Shown here piece after piece: positions 1,111 through 8,447 of a stretch of DNA of 8,447 nt; the stretch's first letter is position 1, and each line of letters starts with the position of its first letter. The notes beneath the pieces were generated by a model. It was not told where the DNA came from. It searched no databases and worked only from the letters and a program-made list of their open reading frames with translations. The DNA is from Nanopusillaceae archaeon (lineage in GTDB: Archaea; Nanobdellota; Nanobdellia; Nanobdellales; Nanobdellaceae), in contig JBMFJL010000023.1 in the NCBI GenBank assembly GCA_049973735.1, forward strand, positions 1 to 8,447. The letters run 5' to 3'. The position numbers and the translations under genes are program-made.

Positions 1111-2739
1111 TTAAATATTTTCATATATATTGAAATATTCTACTACATTATCTTTCCATGAAAACTTTTTGGCTATTTCAAACATCTGCTTTTTAATTTC
1201 TAACCTTTTATACATGTCAAAAGAATAATACTCTTTTATTTTATTAAGAACATTTTCTAAATCTTTTTCAAAATTAAATGGATCTACAGGTATTATAAAA
1301 TCACTTTTTATACCTTTATTTATTAAATTTCTATAAAATCCAGTTTTATTTGATATTATTATTGGAACAAAGTTGTAGAGAGCTTCTAGAGAGGTATATC
1401 CATATGGTTCGTATCTGGATAAAAATACTCCAAAATCAAATACTGGCAATAAATATTCCAGTTCTATATTAAATATTATATCGTTTCCAACATAAACAGG
1501 GGCATATATTATTTTTACATAATTTTTCTCATCATTAATCAAATTATATGATGTAATTTTTCTAATTATAAAATTTTCAGTTGTTATATGGGTAGCAATT
1601 GGTGGATTCTTATGTTTTATTCTATCTCTATTATCTAATATCCTTCTACCAGTGTATAAAGATCTTATTATGTTATAGTCATTTTCATATATGAACTTCT
1701 TTGTGTTTATATAATCTTTGTACAATCTTACAACATCTGGATCTATTCCCTTTGTTTCGTATGGAACAAATATAAATGCTACAGTATTTATTTTATTTTC
1801 TTCTAAATATTTTAAAAGATCAATAAATAAATCTATCCCTTTATTGTATGGTTCATATCTACCTATTGTATATAATAATAAATAATTGTCTGGCAAATCA
1901 TAATATGGATAAAAATACCATGTCAAAAATTCCTCTATCCATCTTTTTCCAATATTATAGTAATAAATTAATTCTTTTTCTTTTACATCAATATAGTTAT
2001 ATGTTACATAATCTGGTTTTCTTCCAAATATTTTAATTGCTTCTTCAGATAAATTATCCGAAACAGTTGTAAACACATCTGTATGTATTATTGTTGCTTT
2101 TTCTAATTGATGTTTGAAATGTATTCCTAACCTATAGGAGTCCTGATCCGGATTTATTTTATCCAAATATTCATATACATTAACATTTTTTTCCGATATA
2201 CTTCTACCAATTACAGTACCATGAATTGTAAATACAGTTTTATAATTCAATCCTTTCTTTTTTACATATAAAACTGTACCGCCAGATAACCATTCGTGCG
2301 CATGCAAAATTTTCTTTTCATTGAAAAAATAATTATCCAATTTTTCTAATAATAATCCTACAGATACTGACCATAACAGAGGTTCGTCAAATGTAAAATC
2401 TGAAAATAGAGAATCTATTTTAAACCATTCCCAGTATTTATACTTCCAATAATCCCTCTCCTTTTTGAAGAATTCATTATAATCAACTAGCAAAACTTGG
2501 GGTTTTCCTTCTATATTCCAATATCCATAATATATTTTTATTGGATCTAAATCTCTATTTATTTCTTTTATATATTCTGGGGCTTCTGTTTGAATAAAAT
2601 CAGAATTATTTTTATATGGCCCAATTAAAAAATAGTTATTACCATATTTTTCTACATAATATTTTGCCTTTGTTGATATTACAGTATATATTCCCCCTAC
2701 TTTATTACAAACTTCCCAGGATTGCTCGAATATTTTCAT
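1111..2739 (-). CDS. Glycogen synthase, eukaryote-type (CAZy GT3-like), compact 542-aa form
   Basis: The GT3 signature blocks appear in the same order as in animal and fungal glycogen synthases: IFEQSWEVCNKVGGIYTVISTKAKYY (N-terminus), HAHEWLSGG, FTIHGTVIGR, HQLEKATIIHTDVFTTVSDNLSEEA, GRYEPYNKGIDLFIDLL and FLSRYEPYGYTSLEALYNFVPIIISNKTGF. The ATG at 2739 overlaps the upstream stop (ATGA). Confidence 0.9.
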   Translation of the reverse strand: MKIFEQSWEVCNKVGGIYTVISTKAKYYVEKYGNNYFLIGPYKNNSDFIQTEAPEYIKEINRDLDPIKIYYGYWNIEGKPQVLLVDYNEFFKKERDYWKYKYWEWFKIDSLFSDFTFDEPLLWSVSVGLLLEKLDNYFFNEKKILHAHEWLSGGTVLYVKKKGLNYKTVFTIHGTVIGRSISEKNVNVYEYLDKINPDQDSYRLGIHFKHQLEKATIIHTDVFTTVSDNLSEEAIKIFGRKPDYVTYNYIDVKEKELIYYYNIGKRWIEEFLTWYFYPYYDLPDNYLLLYTIGRYEPYNKGIDLFIDLLKYLEENKINTVAFIFVPYETKGIDPDVVRLYKDYINTKKFIYENDYNIIRSLYTGRRILDNRDRIKHKNPPIATHITTENFIIRKITSYNLINDEKNYVKIIYAPVYVGNDIIFNIELEYLLPVFDFGVFLSRYEPYGYTSLEALYNFVPIIISNKTGFYRNLINKGIKSDFIIPVDPFNFEKDLENVLNKIKEYYSFDMYKRLEIKKQMFEIAKKFSWKDNVVEYFNIYENI

Positions 2740-3401
2740 CTAAATATTATATCTAATATATTTCTCTTCCTCTTTTTTCCAACTAATAAATATGCCAACT
2801 CATCTATATATTTTAATGCCTTCGATCTTTCTCTATAATATATTATTGGAGCATACTGATATTGGTATTCATTAAAATCTTTTATTATTGGAATTGTTGT
2901 GTATAATTCTTTTTCAAATACATCCTCAACAAAATCTATGTCTAAACTTCTATCATATTTGTTTAATATTATCTTAACCTTATTTTTATTTAAAAAACCG
3001 TATATTTTTTTGTTTACGTATAATGAATACAAATCAGGATTGATCACTAAGAATATTATATCAGATACATTATGGACTTTAATTATTAAATTTGGATCTG
3101 GAAATACATCAAATATTATATAATTGTAGTATTTACTTAGAATAGATAAATCATTTTCAAATCCTTCATAAAGACCATTTGTTATTTTCAAATGAAAGAA
3201 TGGTAATATCTTTATATCTTGCCATAATCTAGTATTTGATATTAATTTATCTTTTATATACATTAAATTTGGTGAATACATTCCATTTGTATCTATTAAT
3301 AATACTTTATAATCATAAAGTTTCTTTATATAAGCTGCTAAATTTATTGCTAAAGTAGTTTTTCCTACTCCTCCTTTCATAGATATGAATGAAACTATCA
3401 T
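2736..3401 (-). CDS. ParA/MinD-family (SIMIBI) P-loop ATPase with deviant Walker A
   Basis: Deviant Walker A with signature lysine SMKGGVGKTT (nt 3354-3380), Walker A' VLLIDTN and Walker B YIIFDVFP. Length is 221 aa, with no HTH domain and no CxxC motif. The C-terminus is a basic-hydrophobic tail, GKKRKRNILDIIFR. ATGA overlaps are present at both ends (3398-3401 and 2736-2739). Confidence 0.9.
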   Translation of the reverse strand: MIVSFISMKGGVGKTTLAINLAAYIKKLYDYKVLLIDTNGMYSPNLMYIKDKLISNTRLWQDIKILPFFHLKITNGLYEGFENDLSILSKYYNYIIFDVFPDPNLIIKVHNVSDIIFLVINPDLYSLYVNKKIYGFLNKNKVKIILNKYDRSLDIDFVEDVFEKELYTTIPIIKDFNEYQYQYAPIIYYRERSKALKYIDELAYLLVGKKRKRNILDIIFR

Positions 3402-3718: not shown

Positions 3719-3743
3719 AATAACTTTATATAGTTAGTTATTA
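3718..3743. repeat. Perfect 8-bp inverted repeat TAATAACT-N10-AGTTATTA bracketing the GH57 TATA box (candidate operator)
   Basis: The sequence at 3718-3725 (taataact) is the exact reverse complement of 3736-3743 (agttatta). The 10-nt spacer contains most of the TTTATATA box. Confidence 0.35.
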
Positions 3744-3754
3744 AAAAATATTTT
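3719..3754. promoter_or_regulatory. 36-nt divergent promoter region with two crossed TATA-like boxes (leaderless transcripts implied)
   Basis: TTTATATA at 3725-3732 is centred about 26.5 nt upstream of the plus-strand ATG at 3755. TTTTTTAA, read on the minus strand at 3748-3741, is centred about 26.5 nt upstream of the minus-strand ATG at 3718. This spacing matches the canonical archaeal TATA-to-TSS distance if transcription starts at or next to the ATG. Confidence 0.55.
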
Positions 3755-4933
3755 ATGGTAAATTTGGTCTTTTACTTCCATGCACATCAACCTAGAAGGA
3801 TAAGATACTATTCCTTCTTTGATATAGGATCAAAAAATTATTTCAACGATGAATTAAATAAAAGAATTCTTGATAGAGTAGTAATGAAATCTTATAAACC
3901 GGCATTAGAAATGTTTTACGATGCAATTACAAAATATGACTTGAAATTTTCTTTTTCAATATCCGGAACATTAATAGAACAATTAGAGCAATATCATCCT
4001 GAGATAATAGATCTTTGGAGAGAATTAATAAATACGGGAAATGTTGAAATTGTTTCTGAAACTTATTATCATTCTGTGGCATATTTAATAGATAAAGAAG
4101 AATTTATAGAACAAATAAAGTTACATAGAAAGAAAATAAAAGAAGTCTTTGGATATAAAACTAGATCTTTCAGAAATTTTGAATTGGTATTTAATAATGA
4201 TATTGGAAAAATAGTATATTCTTTGGGATTTGTATGTGCATTAACTGAAGGAACAGAAAAGATTCTTGGATGGAGGAGCCCAAATTATTTGTATAAACTT
4301 AAACATAACAACCTTAGATTATTATTAAGAAATTATAAACTTTCAGATGATATAGCATTTAGATTTACAAATAGAGAATGGTCTGAATATCCATTAACAG
4401 CAGATAAATATTATCTATGGTTAAAAAATACTCCTGGAGATGTCATAAATATATTTATGGATTTTGAAACCATTGGAGAACATATATGGAAGGAATCTGG
4501 AATATTTGAATTCTGGAAAAAATTATTAGAATATATTGGTAAAGAAAAATATTTCAATACAATGACTGTATCCGAAGCGGCTGAGAATCTAGAAGTAAAA
4601 GGAGAACTTGATATTAAAGAATTAATTTCCTGGGCAGATATTGAAACAGATCTATCAGCATGGTTGGGTGATAGCATACAAAGGGAAGCTTTAAATTATT
4701 TAAAAGAATTGTATAAGAAGAACAAAAATAATAAAGAAATATTAAACATACTAAGATATCTTTCTACTTCGGACAACTTCTATTATATGAGTTTAAAATA
4801 TAATGCAGATGGAGATGTACATAAATACTTTAGAGAAGAGGCATTTGCATCTCCATACGATTCCTTTATATCTTACATGAATATATTAAGAGATATAGAG
4901 TTATCTTACCAAACTATTGAAAATTTGAATTAA
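3755..4933 (+). CDS. Glycoside hydrolase family 57 enzyme, alpha-amylase-like subgroup
   Basis: The five GH57 conserved regions are recognisable in order: FHAHQPRR (nt 3779-3793 encode HAHQP), GNVEIVSETYYHS, FRNFELVF (candidate nucleophile Glu), FMDFETIGEH (candidate acid/base Asp) and STSDNFYYMS. At 392 aa it is shorter than GH57 branching enzymes. Confidence 0.85.
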   Translation: MVNLVFYFHAHQPRRIRYYSFFDIGSKNYFNDELNKRILDRVVMKSYKPALEMFYDAITKYDLKFSFSISGTLIEQLEQYHPEIIDLWRELINTGNVEIVSETYYHSVAYLIDKEEFIEQIKLHRKKIKEVFGYKTRSFRNFELVFNNDIGKIVYSLGFVCALTEGTEKILGWRSPNYLYKLKHNNLRLLLRNYKLSDDIAFRFTNREWSEYPLTADKYYLWLKNTPGDVINIFMDFETIGEHIWKESGIFEFWKKLLEYIGKEKYFNTMTVSEAAENLEVKGELDIKELISWADIETDLSAWLGDSIQREALNYLKELYKKNKNNKEILNILRYLSTSDNFYYMSLKYNADGDVHKYFREEAFASPYDSFISYMNILRDIELSYQTIENLN

Positions 4934-6100
4934 TTTTTCTACAGAATTTTTCCAAGATAAATTCTTTATATCTTCCAAAGTTAATTTTATCTCTATTTCT
5001 CCCAATTTTGGATATTCTAGTAAAGCTAGTATATAATTCGCCATTTTATCAACATCCCAAAAATCCACTTTCAATGCACTTTTTAATACTTCAGAAACAC
5101 CACTTTGTTTTGATATTATAATATAATTTTTATATCTCAATGCTTCAAATGGCGTTAAACCAAATGGTTCAGATACTGAAGGTAAAACAAATATATCAGA
5201 AATTGAATATAAATATTCTGCTAATTCATCATCAACCCAACCAGTAAAAACAACATTCTTAGATATATTAAGATCTGCAGCCATTTTTATTAATTTCTCT
5301 AACATTTCACCAGTTCCAGCAAAAATGAACAGTATATCTTTTCTTTTTTCCAATATTTTTTTTGCAGCTAATAATAAATAATCTGGTCCCTTATGCAATG
5401 TCATTCTTCCTAGATATAAAACTATCTTATATTTTTCATTTATTTTTGTTCTTATTTTTTCTTTTATACTAAAGTCGTCATCTGGTGCATTATAAATTAC
5501 CTCAATTTTTTCTCCAGGAACATAATAGTATTTTTCTAATATTTCTTTTTCCCTTTTACTTACTACAATTATCTTATCTGCCAACATAGAACCTTCTAGT
5601 TCAATTCCATAATCATAATCAATTAAGTATTTTAAGTATTCTGGATTTGCGCCAACCCTATCATATGCTAATGAATGAAAATGCACTACCAATGGTTTCT
5701 TATATATTTTCTTAATTTCCATCGCTGCTGGTAAAGTTAACCAATCATATGCATAAATAATATCAAAATCCAAGTTTAACTTCTTCAATAGGTCTATAAC
5801 CTTTTCTTTATACTCCATAACTGCTTTTTTATAGTCTATGATATTTCTCTTATATAAAGTAAGAGATTCGTACTTAAAATAATCTATATAACTCTTTAAT
5901 ATATTCATATTTAATCCAAAGATCATTGAATTTCCTATTTTTCCTTTCCAAAATTCTATAACATCCTTTGTCAAGTTCGGAATTATCAAATAAACTACAT
6001 TTCCAAATTTAGTAAGATATTTAAAATAATAATATGTGGCTTTCTCAAGTCCACCAGTTTTTTGAGGAAGTATCCCCCAAGATAAAAATAATATTTTCAT
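4901..6100 (-). CDS. glgA: Archaeal-type glycogen synthase / GT-B glycosyltransferase (GT5/GT4-like, GlgA-like)
   Basis: MKILFLSWGILPQKTGGLEKA carries the KTGGL nucleotide-sugar motif (nt 6047-6061). Other blocks are YAYDWLTLPAAMEIKKIYKKPLVVHFHSL, GRMTLHKGPDYLL and the E-x7-E block PSVSEPFGLTPFEALRY. These are collinear by eye with Pyrococcus-type glycogen synthase. I prefer the start at 6100 (MKILFLS) over the track's 6139; see the findings. Confidence 0.8.
   Translation of the reverse strand: MKILFLSWGILPQKTGGLEKATYYYFKYLTKFGNVVYLIIPNLTKDVIEFWKGKIGNSMIFGLNMNILKSYIDYFKYESLTLYKRNIIDYKKAVMEYKEKVIDLLKKLNLDFDIIYAYDWLTLPAAMEIKKIYKKPLVVHFHSLAYDRVGANPEYLKYLIDYDYGIELEGSMLADKIIVVSKREKEILEKYYYVPGEKIEVIYNAPDDDFSIKEKIRTKINEKYKIVLYLGRMTLHKGPDYLLLAAKKILEKRKDILFIFAGTGEMLEKLIKMAADLNISKNVVFTGWVDDELAEYLYSISDIFVLPSVSEPFGLTPFEALRYKNYIIISKQSGVSEVLKSALKVDFWDVDKMANYILALLEYPKLGEIEIKLTLEDIKNLSWKNSVEKLIQIFNSLVR
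4934..4951 (+). terminator. Oligo-T tracts (T5 at 4934-4938, T5 at 4947-4951) immediately after the GH57 stop; candidate terminator
   Basis: T-runs begin directly after the TAA at 4931-4933, inside the convergent glycosyltransferase coding sequence. Confidence 0.4.
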
Positions 6101-6153
6101 AAAGGTAATAATTTTTAAAATAGTTATAAAACTTTTCATAGAAAAATAACATT
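6101..6153. promoter_or_regulatory. Bidirectional promoter: one palindromic TATA core (TTATAA, 6124-6129) midway between divergent start codons
   Basis: The TTATAA centre (6126.5) is 26.5 nt from the minus-strand ATG at 6100 and 27.5 nt from the plus-strand ATG at 6154. Purine-rich BRE-like sequence flanks it on each side (GAAAAG on the minus strand at 6137-6132; AAAATAG on the plus strand at 6117-6123). Confidence 0.6.
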
Positions 6154-7788
6154 ATGATAAACGAAATGAAATTATCACATTTTGATTATTCCCTAATAAC
6201 TGAAGGAAATAATATTTTCATTTTACCTTTACTATATAGTAGTAGGTATTTCGGTTTATTATCTAGATATAACAACTTTTATATCAAAACTATAGATAGA
6301 ATAGAAAACATGAATTTAAAAAATAAAAAAATTGAAGAAATAAAATTAAAAGACTATAACGAATTAGAAATTTTGTATGAAGATAATAGTTGGGAAAATT
6401 ATAAATTATTAGATGGAAAATTAATATATAAAACTAATAGAGAAGCATATTTGAAGGTATATTTTGATGTAAGGCACTTATATGATATAGATGAATGGGG
6501 AAGGATATATAATTACAGAAAAATTAATGATAATTTAGTAGAAATTACTTTTAATAAAGGAGAAATAAATTATATTATTAGAATTAAAGACTTCATATAT
6601 CTATATGAAAATAATGAAAAATGGGTAAAAGTATATTATAATTATGATGAATATAGAAAATCTCCTCCATATGATAGGTACCTATATGTACCATTTACAT
6701 TTTTATCAAATAAATTAGAGATCATACTTTCTAGTAATATTAAAAATAATATAGATGAAGATAGATTTAACATTAACAAGCTAATAAAGAAAAGATTAGA
6801 ATCTTTTATTTATGATAATAAAATTGCTGCCGGATTTCCATGGTATTTCCAAGAGTGGACTAGGGATGTTCTAATTTCCTTACCAGGATTATATAAAGCA
6901 GGATTTAAAGATCTTGTAAAGAAAAAATTAATCGAATATTCAGAGTTATTTTTAGATGATGGAAGATTAAGAAATATAAACGGACAAAATATAGGAAATT
7001 CTGATGGATTAGGATTATATATAAAAAGATTATTTGATTTCAAAGATTTATTTGATTCATTTGAATTTAATAAACTTTTATCAAATGCATTAATAGCTTT
7101 GAATTCATACGAATACAATTATCTTGATGATAAATATTTCCTTTTTAGAGCGTATCCAAATGAAACTTGGATGGATACATTAAATAGACAGTATCCAATC
7201 GAAATCCAGTTTTTAATGATGGATGTCTATGATAATCTATACAATCATACAAAAAATATTGAATATAAAGAAAAGTTGGAAAAATTAAAGAATTCTGTAA
7301 AACTTTATTATCTATCTGATTCATCTTTATACGATGATTTGAAAGACAGAAAAATAAGATGTAACATATTTTTATCCTACTATTATTATCCAAAATTGTT
7401 CTCCAATATTGAATGGGAGAAAATATTTGACTATGCAATGTTACATTTATATCTAGACTGGGGTGGAATTTCAAGTCTATCAAAATTAGATAAAAACTTT
7501 ATAAAAGATACAAACGAAGACAATTACTTCCTGAATGAGGGAAAATCAATGCACAATGGAGATTCATGGATATATATAAATAATATTGCGGCTATATCAT
7601 TATATAAAGTAAATAAAGAGAAATATAGAGATGAAATAAATAAAATTTTAGAATCAGATTTACAATTAATTAAAATGATAGGAACATTACCTGAGAGATC
7701 TAGCGCCAGTAAATTAAAACCTGCAGGGGCCCTACATCAACTCTGGTCTTTAGCTACTTATATTGAATTAAAAGATGTGGTGGCATAA
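6154..7788 (+). CDS. Archaeal-type glycogen debranching enzyme (amylo-alpha-1,6-glucosidase, GDE_C-like (alpha/alpha)6 domain) with an unassigned N-terminal domain
   Basis: From about residue 225 it shows AAGFPWYFQEWTRDVLISLPGL (the family's PW(F/Y)..WGRD..I.LPGL-type motif), then WMDTL, HNGDSWIYINN and ALHQLWSLATYIEL near the C-terminus. Residues 1 to about 225 are N/K/Y/I-rich with no motif I recognise. Confidence 0.85.
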   Translation: MINEMKLSHFDYSLITEGNNIFILPLLYSSRYFGLLSRYNNFYIKTIDRIENMNLKNKKIEEIKLKDYNELEILYEDNSWENYKLLDGKLIYKTNREAYLKVYFDVRHLYDIDEWGRIYNYRKINDNLVEITFNKGEINYIIRIKDFIYLYENNEKWVKVYYNYDEYRKSPPYDRYLYVPFTFLSNKLEIILSSNIKNNIDEDRFNINKLIKKRLESFIYDNKIAAGFPWYFQEWTRDVLISLPGLYKAGFKDLVKKKLIEYSELFLDDGRLRNINGQNIGNSDGLGLYIKRLFDFKDLFDSFEFNKLLSNALIALNSYEYNYLDDKYFLFRAYPNETWMDTLNRQYPIEIQFLMMDVYDNLYNHTKNIEYKEKLEKLKNSVKLYYLSDSSLYDDLKDRKIRCNIFLSYYYYPKLFSNIEWEKIFDYAMLHLYLDWGGISSLSKLDKNFIKDTNEDNYFLNEGKSMHNGDSWIYINNIAAISLYKVNKEKYRDEINKILESDLQLIKMIGTLPERSSASKLKPAGALHQLWSLATYIELKDVVA

Positions 7789-8447
7789 ATACGGATTTAT
7801 AAGAAATCCACTGGATATAAGACCAAATGAAGATCTAGTTGGAGTAGATGATATAGTAAAAAAAGTAAAATATGCTATTAGAAATGGAGAAATATTTCTT
7901 CTATACGGACCTATTGGATCTGGAAAAACCTCATTAGCTTTTAAAATAAAGAAAGATCTATCAGAAGAATATAATGTAATCTATATAAATGGAGAATATG
8001 AAAAAGATATAGATAAAAAAATAGAAGAAGAATCCTATATAAAGTTTTTATTCTTTAAATTTAAGAATAAATTACCCATAGTTTTAATATTGGATGAATT
8101 TTACAATTTTCCAGAAGAGATATCTAAGAAATTAAAATATATGTATGATAATGGGATTGTATATTCAATAATGTTAATACAACCTTCTCCACAAATTATG
8201 AATGCAACAGTATCTTTCTTGAATAGATTATATGAAAAAATAGAAATGCATTTTCCATCAGAAGATGATATAATAAATCTAATAAATAAAAAACTAAAGA
8301 ATAAAATTGTTTTTGACGAAAATTTCTTAAGAAATATAATAAGAAAAAATAATAATAATGTAAGATCTATTTTTATAGAGCTAAATAATATTTTATCTAA
8401 CATGAAACATCCTGTAAAAGGGGTTATTAAGAGTAATATAGATACAC
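7775..8447 (+). CDS. AAA+/P-loop ATPase (ExeA/AAA_22- or ORC-like architecture), 3' end outside the window; NOT in the supplied ORF track
   Basis: My own translation from the ATG at 7775 is open for 224 codons to the window edge: MWWHKYGFIRNPLDIRPNEDLVGVDDIVKKVKYAIRNGEIFLLYGPIGSGKTSLA... It has Walker A GPIGSGKTS (7907-7933), Walker B VLILDEF (8081-8101) and a sensor-2-like NVRSIFIELNNIL. The start overlaps the debranching-enzyme 3' end by 14 nt. Confidence 0.8.
   Translation, partial: MWWHKYGFIRNPLDIRPNEDLVGVDDIVKKVKYAIRNGEIFLLYGPIGSGKTSLAFKIKKDLSEEYNVIYINGEYEKDIDKKIEEESYIKFLFFKFKNKLPIVLILDEFYNFPEEISKKLKYMYDNGIVYSIMLIQPSPQIMNATVSFLNRLYEKIEMHFPSEDDIINLINKKLKNKIVFDENFLRNIIRKNNNNVRSIFIELNNILSNMKHPVKGVIKSNIDT

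Follow-up and report, generated by a model that had tools for sequence, protein, structure and literature searches.

How is a glycogen synthase of the eukaryotic type regulated, and how are its chains primed, when it belongs to an archaeon? The question is raised by a stretch of 8,447 nucleotides (hereafter the window), which forms a whole contig (JBMFJL010000023.1) of the 786-kb, 86%-complete genome of a Nanopusillaceae archaeon and in which one gene encodes a family GT3 glycogen synthase. An initial annotation, made from the sequence alone, had described this enzyme as a minimal synthase in an unusual host, devoid of eukaryotic regulatory features and of a glycogenin partner, and as relevant to the origin of the eukaryotic enzyme. 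The reading we favour, and which we hold to be likely as a whole, is that of an active GT3 synthase inherited within the DPANN archaea in a reduced form, which has lost control by glucose-6-phosphate (G6P) and by phosphorylation and which does without glycogenin. Taken alone, the gene adds one more GT3 sequence from DPANN archaea, in which the existence of the family, its phylogeny and its missing glycogenin are already in the literature. What the comparison adds is a concrete and testable map of the residues that separate enzymes with a G6P pocket from those without one.

Identity and descent of the synthase

The open reading frame (ORF) encodes a GT3 glycogen synthase. It is intact, as first annotated, with the correction that it lies on the minus strand, which had been left unstated, and it runs from an ATG at 2739-2737 to a stop codon at 1113-1111 (542 amino acids). 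All the conserved blocks on which the family assignment had been based are present in the translation of 1111..2739, which contains WEVCNKVGGIYTV, HAHEWLSGG, VFTTVS, GRYEPYNKG, YEPYGYTSLEA and KRLEIKKQMFEIAKKFSW, with a C-terminus reading ...EYFNIYENI. The Pfam model PF05693 (Glycogen_syn) matches residues 5-469 with 241.2 bits (E 3.2e-71, cut-off 27), and scores 235.5 bits in a genome-level search. Against the 241 bits of PF05693, the GT5 model Glyco_transf_5 reaches 45 bits, GT4 models are far lower too, and the NCBIfam GlgA models all stay well below their cut-offs (52 bits for TIGR02095, cut-off 328). In a phmmer search of PDB, yeast Gsy2p and human GYS1 are the top matches (E about 1e-58).

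The predicted fold agrees with this assignment. An AlphaFold2 model built with 33 homologues (mean predicted local distance difference test score 93, predicted TM-score 0.89) was compared with known structures using Foldseek. The first 39 hits are without exception structures of Gsy2p, GYS1 or Caenorhabditis elegans glycogen synthase, with query-normalised TM-scores (TMq) of 0.84-0.92, and the best match is 3nb0_B, the G6P-activated, G6P-bound form of the yeast enzyme (TMq 0.92). The first GT5 structure, that of Pyrococcus abyssi, has a TMq of 0.56, and all GT5 structures stay at or below 0.57, with 16-17% identity. The P. abyssi glycogen synthase (2BIS, 3FRO) is thus a functional analogue in archaea that the window protein matches weakly; GT5 enzymes lack both the GT3 insert and the allosteric helix. 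With Gsy2p (3NB0, 3NAZ) and GYS1 (7Q12, 8CVX; EC 2.4.1.11), the window protein shares the Pfam family, the GT-B fold, the catalytic, diphosphate-contacting and glucose-contacting residues, and the N-terminal KVGGI, HEW, GRYE..NKG and YEP.GYT blocks.

Its catalytic and donor-contact residues E149, H173, R179, R294, K300, E444 and E452 are all present. The glutamate of the HEW motif (human E181) is presumably catalytic, in line with the yeast E169Q mutant (entry 4KQM). The equivalents of human E181, H205, R211, R331, K337, E510, Y514 and E518 are identical in the window protein and in ten out of ten members of the clade of short proteins to which it belongs; all but E181 were taken from the published diphosphate, ribose and glucose contacts of GYS1 (PMC9287172). 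Because these contacts and the HEW glutamate are identical throughout the clade, the enzyme is very probably active.

Descent was examined on a set of 87 aligned rows, comprising the ten short-clade proteins (about 540-560 residues), long forms from DPANN archaea and from the Candidate Phyla Radiation (CPR), representatives of an exhaustive search (529 clusters at E <=1e-30, best 150 representatives listed), Bacteroidota, Phycisphaerae and four named eukaryotes (Dictyostelium, Carpediemonas, Aduncisulcus and Barthelona). Quick maximum-likelihood trees were built under LG+G4 (87 rows) and under LG+C20+F+G4 with posterior mean site frequencies (79 rows). In both, the short clade (Shimodaira-Hasegawa-like approximate likelihood ratio test, SH-aLRT, 100) is deeply nested among the long DPANN forms. 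Its sister consists of two DPANN-type long-form rows of about 593 residues, one of them named Woesearchaeota by NCBI, with support of 96 and 94 in the two models. A separate clade (support 100) unites the eukaryotes with Bacteroidota and Phycisphaerae. The closest proteins are those of a 'Nanoarchaeota archaeon' on a 773,326-bp contig (72% identity), of Candidatus Nanobsidianus stetteri (69%) and of Nanobdella aerobiophila (64%), followed by other Nanopusillaceae (44-55%) and then by Woesearchaeota, Pacearchaeota and Parcubacteria (33-39%). The G+C content of the gene, 24.8%, is the same as that of its neighbours, and the window stays at about 24% throughout.

We conclude that the window GT3 was inherited vertically within DPANN archaea. 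Since the short clade is nested in long, pocket-bearing DPANN forms, it is reduced rather than primitive. The label 'minimal' is right in that the tails are absent, and misleading in that the enzyme is minimal by secondary reduction; moreover, it is not specially close to eukaryotes. Because of this reduction, the window protein itself says little on the origin of the eukaryotic enzyme, contrary to what had been suggested at first, and its long relatives say more.

The presence of GT3 in such an archaeon, initially presented as unusual, is neither rare nor new. Of 400 high-quality genomes sampled across the window's phylum, 213 have a PF05693 match, as do three of three genomes of its genus; the one genome from the same order that consists of a single 0.5-Mb contig gave none. 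Three unpublished genomes (G360, G244 and G322) are counted here, the first of which also supplied one (L003) of 30 scanned loci, and none of the claims depends on them alone. A 2026 preprint gives K00693 in 68 of 123 (55%) complete Woesearchaeales (10.64898/2026.05.13.725050). A 2024 review had already described GlgA-GT3 in DPANN and Euryarchaeota, with the DPANN sequences nearer to bacteria of the Planctomycetes-Verrucomicrobia-Chlamydiae (PVC) group and to eukaryotes, and no glycogenin homologue that could be found (PMC11046441). GT3 is the usual glycogen synthase of the phylum, not an exotic one.

Two states of the glucose-6-phosphate pocket

In human GYS1, the phosphate of G6P is bound by Arg579, Arg582, Arg586, Lys301 and His501, and the sugar is contacted in cis by a histidine printed as 'His287', Gln294 and Arg586, and in trans by His291 and Glu292 (PMC9287172). 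By a count along the alignment, the counterpart of yeast His286 in the human enzyme is the histidine at position 297. The number used for yeast, that of the 2010 Gsy2p structure paper, agrees with the alignment of the PDB sequences. Human residues were mapped onto the window protein through pairwise and profile alignments to Gsy2p and GYS1, the 87-row alignment and a codon check. A profile of 33 DPANN and CPR GT3 sequences aligns almost gaplessly to residues 25-615 of GYS1 (E 1e-169).

Across the six pocket positions (H297, K301, H501, R579, R582 and R586), the window protein keeps three, K301 as K265, R582 as R512 and R586 as K516, and the G6P pocket is not intact. H297 is replaced by Y261, R579 by M509 and H501 by D435, the last of these reversing the charge. 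The initial annotation had aligned the arginine-cluster helix correctly and had seen that it holds no run of arginines. It had overlooked that both G6P-contacting positions of the helix (R512 and K516) are kept, and that only the phospho-sensing arginines R579/R580 and R588/R591 are gone, with M509, Y510, Q518 and E521 in their places. Stronger evidence of a lost site comes from three features outside the helix: the change of His501 to Asp435, that of His297 to Tyr261, and a deletion of four residues that adjoins codons 261-265, in the loop bearing the trans contacts (human 290-292). All ten short-clade members have Asp at position 501 and Tyr or Phe in place of His297, with R, K, F, I or Y at position 582. 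G6P control of the window enzyme has probably been lost.

The elements of phosphorylation control are missing as well. The N-terminus of the window protein corresponds to about human residue 27, and its C-terminus lies 14 residues past the conserved Trp528, versus 106-242 residues after this tryptophan in two longer eukaryote-clade rows. The absence of a C-terminal phosphoregulatory tail, as first noted, is thus matched by that of the N-terminal tail, and only the core is left. The insert P326-H384, a tetramerisation hairpin in eukaryotes, counts 59 residues in the window protein, against 79-81 in Gsy2p and GYS1 and 74-89 in every row with His at position 501. The model places helices at 334-352 and 354-362 in this region, followed by a low-confidence loop. 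We predict that the enzyme does not form a tetramer of the eukaryotic type. Compared with Gsy2p and GYS1, the window enzyme differs in its missing phospho-sites, phospho-sensing arginines, uridine-stacking tyrosine (human Tyr493, discussed below) and glycogenin, in the shortened insert, and in the H297Y and H501D replacements.

Over the 87 rows, position 501 is His in 42 and Asp in 38, and the rest of the pocket follows in part. His297 is found in 42/42 His-501 rows versus 5/38 Asp-501 rows; position 582 is Arg in 40 of the 42 former, and variable, often hydrophobic, in the 38 latter. The flanking basic residues are common to both types, at position 301 (42/42 and 37/38) as well as at position 586 (39/42 and 37/38). 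Insert length is 74-89 residues in His-501 rows versus 16-82 in Asp-501 rows. The His type, with His297, Lys/Arg301, His501, Arg582 and Lys/Arg586, is kept in most long DPANN and CPR enzymes (about 595 residues), as well as in Bacteroidota and Phycisphaerae. Asp-501 rows include all ten short-clade proteins and 14 short-insert rows, several of which are long two-domain proteins. Among the Asp-501 proteins outside the short clade are such two-domain proteins, one of them named 'alpha-glucan family phosphorylase [bacterium]' (1425 residues), and their unfused relatives, which resemble the window protein in having lost His297 and Arg582, in keeping basic residues at 301 and 586 and in having shortened inserts (16-39 residues). 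They differ from it in the length of several members (more than 1000 residues), in having kept Tyr493, and in forming a separate lineage.

At position 501, parsimony requires at least seven changes between His and Asp, and the approximately unbiased (AU) test rejects a common origin of all Asp-type rows (delta lnL 198, p-AU 0.0013). Among six independent pairs, His297 tracks the state of position 501 in five to six (p about 0.03). A basic residue at 582 goes in the same direction in about three of the six pairs and in the opposite direction in none, which is not significant, and insert length gives no signal (0/6 pairs).

These distributions suggest that G6P activation may be a prokaryotic, ancestral property of GT3; literature searches on the arginine cluster in prokaryotic GT3 returned nothing relevant. 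We interpret the Asp state as the outcome of an ancestral pocket having been lost or remodelled several times, because it is implausible that one and the same site of three residues was gained repeatedly. A more detailed proposal, possible and distinctly doubtful when all its parts are taken jointly, would run as follows. The G6P pocket would be ancestral and intact in most GT3 of DPANN, CPR, PVC and Bacteroidota, and the Nanopusillaceae would represent one of at least seven switches. In these, the Asp carboxylate would sit between the basic residues 301 and 586, mimic the phosphate and lock the enzyme into a constitutive, effector-independent form, and loss of the uridine-stacking Tyr would relax or change the choice of donor. 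Natural pairs of enzymes with and without the pocket could be used to test if G6P activation predates eukaryotes, and how GT3 functions without it. Such tests are feasible, as cultured hosts exist for two congeners.

Priming, donor and competing readings

According to our favoured reading, the ORF would encode the retaining GT-B alpha-1,4-glucan (glycogen) synthase of a conserved Nanopusillaceae glycogen locus. The enzyme would derive by reduction from a DPANN form of about 595 residues, through shortening of the insert from 78 to 59 residues and of the inter-subunit loop by four. Its pocket would have been remodelled by the changes of His297 to Tyr and His501 to Asp, with Arg582 unconserved in the clade and the flanking Lys265 and Lys516 retained. 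Neither activation by G6P nor phospho-control in the eukaryotic manner would operate. Activity would instead be set by substrate supply, and possibly by two operon partners, a DUF5752-like protein and a MinD-like ATPase. Priming would take place without glycogenin, the chains being started by a Pyrococcus-type GT5-like neighbour or by the GT3 enzyme itself.

The initial annotation had reported no glycogenin-like gene of family GT8 and had asked how the enzyme is primed. The absence extends beyond the window: no GT8 protein (PF01501, E <=0.01) was detected in the window, in the 86%-complete genome from which it comes or in any of three single-contig congeners; the same search was positive in 5 of 14 reference genomes used as a control. 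The priming question takes another turn with a second synthase homologue present in the window itself. The 412-residue GT5-like protein encoded three genes away from GT3 has as its best solved relative the P. abyssi glycogen synthase, which it matches end to end (residues 13-408, E 2e-16), and many genomes of the phylum have one of its homologues beside GT3. Among bacterial GT5 synthases, at least that of Agrobacterium reportedly initiates chains unaided. Priming by the GT5-like neighbour or self-priming by GT3 would be the likeliest routes, with the GT5-like gene as a candidate primer-maker. Initiation by this Pyrococcus-type neighbour would be a simple explanation of how chains are primed without glycogenin.

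Two competing readings accept an active enzyme and dispute its control or its product. If the synthase were still activated by G6P, the phosphate would be bound by Lys265, Arg512 and Lys516; three of the five phosphate-contact positions of GYS1 are indeed basic, and 37 of the 38 Asp rows have basic residues at 301 and 586. This is unlikely, given that every clade member has an acidic Asp for His501 and Tyr or Phe for His297, that position 582 varies between R, K, F, I and Y, and that the trans-contact loop which drives activation (human 290-292) is short by four residues. Slightly less probable still is an enzyme that is not a storage-glucan synthase and uses another donor or acceptor, for instance to make a linear or surface glucan from ADP-, GDP-, CDP- or dTDP-glucose. 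One argument for it is the uridine site. In GYS1, the uridine of UDP-glucose is sandwiched by I367, F481 and Y493 (PMC9287172). The first two are conservatively replaced in the window protein (F324 and Y416) and Y493 becomes L427; this position is K, Q, P, L or I in ten of ten short-clade rows, and Tyr in 63 of the 73 rows that make up the three remaining groups of the tabulation. In some short-clade members, an aromatic residue located two positions further on might compensate. The nucleotidyltransferases of the genome point in the same direction, being a CDP-glucose synthase, an RmlA-type fragment and a 264-residue protein, with no clear GalU, UDPGP or GlgC in the window's own genome; the lack of a detected branching enzyme and the second synthase-like gene three genes off can be added to these. 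Against another donor or acceptor speak the conservation of every glucose- and diphosphate-contacting residue, the surroundings of the gene, where GH57, GH133-type and GT5-like glucan genes form a kind of cluster found across the phylum, and the glycogen storage proposed for N. acidilobi in 2016 (PMC4935971).

Other readings concern the origin of the gene or its very activity. An inactive pseudo-enzyme, kept as a scaffold of the glycogen cluster, could account for the lost regulatory elements beside a second synthase-like gene. It is very improbable, since all catalytic and donor residues tested are intact and invariant in the clade, and four genomes carry the ORF at full length, with 64-72% identity. 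A recent horizontal transfer from a bacterium or a eukaryote can be rejected and is scarcely credible: GT3 is best known from eukaryotes, and there are proposals of gene transfer between DPANN and Bacteroidetes (PMC11046441), yet the nearest relatives are all Nanopusillaceae (44-72% identity) and then other DPANN (33-39%), the protein is nested in DPANN in both trees, synteny is identical in four genomes and G+C content equals that of the flanks.

Several points weigh against the favoured reading of a reduced synthase freed from G6P and phospho-control. No archaeal GT3, from this clade or any other, has been characterised or assayed (PMC11046441). Three of the five human G6P phosphate ligands are kept (K265, R512 and K516), so that some binding of phosphate esters is possible, and the geometry of the pocket, including the Asp435-Lys265-Lys516 arrangement, is deduced from homology and not from model coordinates. 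The trees come from quick searches on compositionally skewed sequences, are midpoint-rooted and have no support values other than SH-aLRT. The polarity from His to Asp, as loss and not gain, rests on this midpoint rooting and on the improbability of repeated His/His/Arg gains, with no outgroup such as the GT3 of Methanosarcinales. Finally, no recognisable branching enzyme was found, there being no GH13 protein (PF00128) in the window's own genome and no BE_C domain (PF09210) in four genomes (G000, G248, G316 and G370). The only GH57 protein of the window's own genome is the one of 392 residues encoded in the window. The glucan may thus be unbranched and not classical glycogen, or else the short GH57 enzyme may introduce the branches.

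The glycogen locus and its partners

The coordinates of the features of the window are collected in the table below.

Features of the glycogen locus in the 8,447-nucleotide window, with the residues of the synthase discussed in the text
Feature	Coordinates	Strand	Evidence or remark
GT3 (PF05693) glycogen synthase, 542 aa, reduced Asp-501 subtype ('D-type')	1111..2739	minus	Pfam, PDB, model
Helix equivalent to the eukaryotic arginine-cluster helix, codons 509-521	1177..1215	minus	Alignments, codon check
Asp435 codon (human His501; yeast His500, G6P phosphate ligand)	1435..1437	minus	
Leu427 codon (human Tyr493, one face of the uridine sandwich)	1459..1461	minus	
Tyr261 (human His297) to Lys265 (human Lys301), codons 261-265	1945..1959	minus	
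MinD/ParA-type ATPase, 221 aa, KGGVGKT	2736..3401	minus	Stop overlaps GT3 start (ATGA)
DUF5752/OrfY-like single-module protein, 106 aa	3398..3718	minus	Stop overlaps ATPase start (ATGA)
GH57 glucan enzyme, 392 aa, without BE_C domain	3755..4933	plus	Divergent from small protein-ATPase-GT3 operon
GT5-like/GT4 glycosyltransferase, 412 aa, KTGGL motif	4901..6139	minus	Glyco_transf_5 and Glycos_transf_1
Amylo-alpha-1,6-glucosidase (GDE_C, GH133-type) homologue, 544 aa	6154..7788	plus	Pfam; syntenic in congeners

The nine genes of the window, seven of them full ORFs and two partial, recur in the same order in three single-contig congeners of 605,887, 668,961 and 773,326 bp. This order is SBDS, membrane protein, GT3, MinD/ParA-like ATPase, small protein, GH57, GT5-like transferase, GDE_C glucosidase and AAA ATPase. 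The long GlgA-GT3 of DPANN and CPR bacteria (PMC11046441, Fig. 6), which fall in the same clade, share GT4/GT5-like, GH57, DUF5752-like and GH133-type neighbours with the window enzyme. In comparison with these loci, the gene order of the window clade is rearranged and the MinD-like ATPase is inserted.

The two genes upstream of GT3 in the operon are candidates for its regulation. The MinD/ParA ATPase occupies the same place in the three congeners and in one genome of another family (G085), and the trio of small protein, ATPase and GT3 is kept in all four. Pfam matches DUF5752 to the 106-residue protein below threshold, and a profile comparison relates it to OrfY of Thermoproteus tenax (4CSO, E 2e-6); literature searches on DUF5752 returned nothing relevant. 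A search with the HHV..NDF motif of this small protein, based on a 5-row alignment, retrieved 80 loci, most of which show the arrangement GT4-GH57-small-small, and 34 of which have GT3 within 300 bp. Most of the 80 hold the set of GT4/GT5-like, GH57, DUF5752-like and GH133-type genes in an order unlike that of the window. The DUF5752-like partner accompanies 30 GT3 genes of the His type. A link of the MinD-like ATPase with the Asp-type pocket was also considered and rejected, since one locus (L070) has the ATPase beside a His-type GT3. As the small protein and the ATPase occur with both His- and Asp-type GT3, they do not explain the change of the pocket.

Between the small-protein operon and the divergent GH57 gene lies an A+T-rich gap of 36 bp (3719-3754), which holds a TTTATATA box and is probably a shared bidirectional archaeal promoter region. 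At the other end of the locus, a gene for an AAA-type ATPase (7775-8446, plus strand) shares 14 bases with the end of the GDE_C gene, and is found at the same position in the three congeners with 75-81% identity. The locus as a whole brings together two synthase types within a genome of about 0.8 Mb (0.6-0.8 Mb in the congeners).

The 264-residue sugar-1-phosphate nucleotidyltransferase mentioned above is encoded elsewhere, at G000:C6:16130-16870 (locus L037, 1462-2256, minus strand). It reaches no NCBIfam cut-off, its best partial matches being the N-domains of archaeal GlmU, RmlA-long and GlgC, and it is a candidate for making NDP-glucose for glucan synthesis.

A last observation concerns database names. 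Many contigs titled 'uncultured Methanosarcinales archaeon' (L040, L041, L042, L053 and others) carry the GT4-GH57-DUF5752-GT3 cluster of the DPANN type, and the small protein of L040 is 100% identical to one from a genome (G051) of the window's class. The contigs so titled look like mislabelled DPANN bins.

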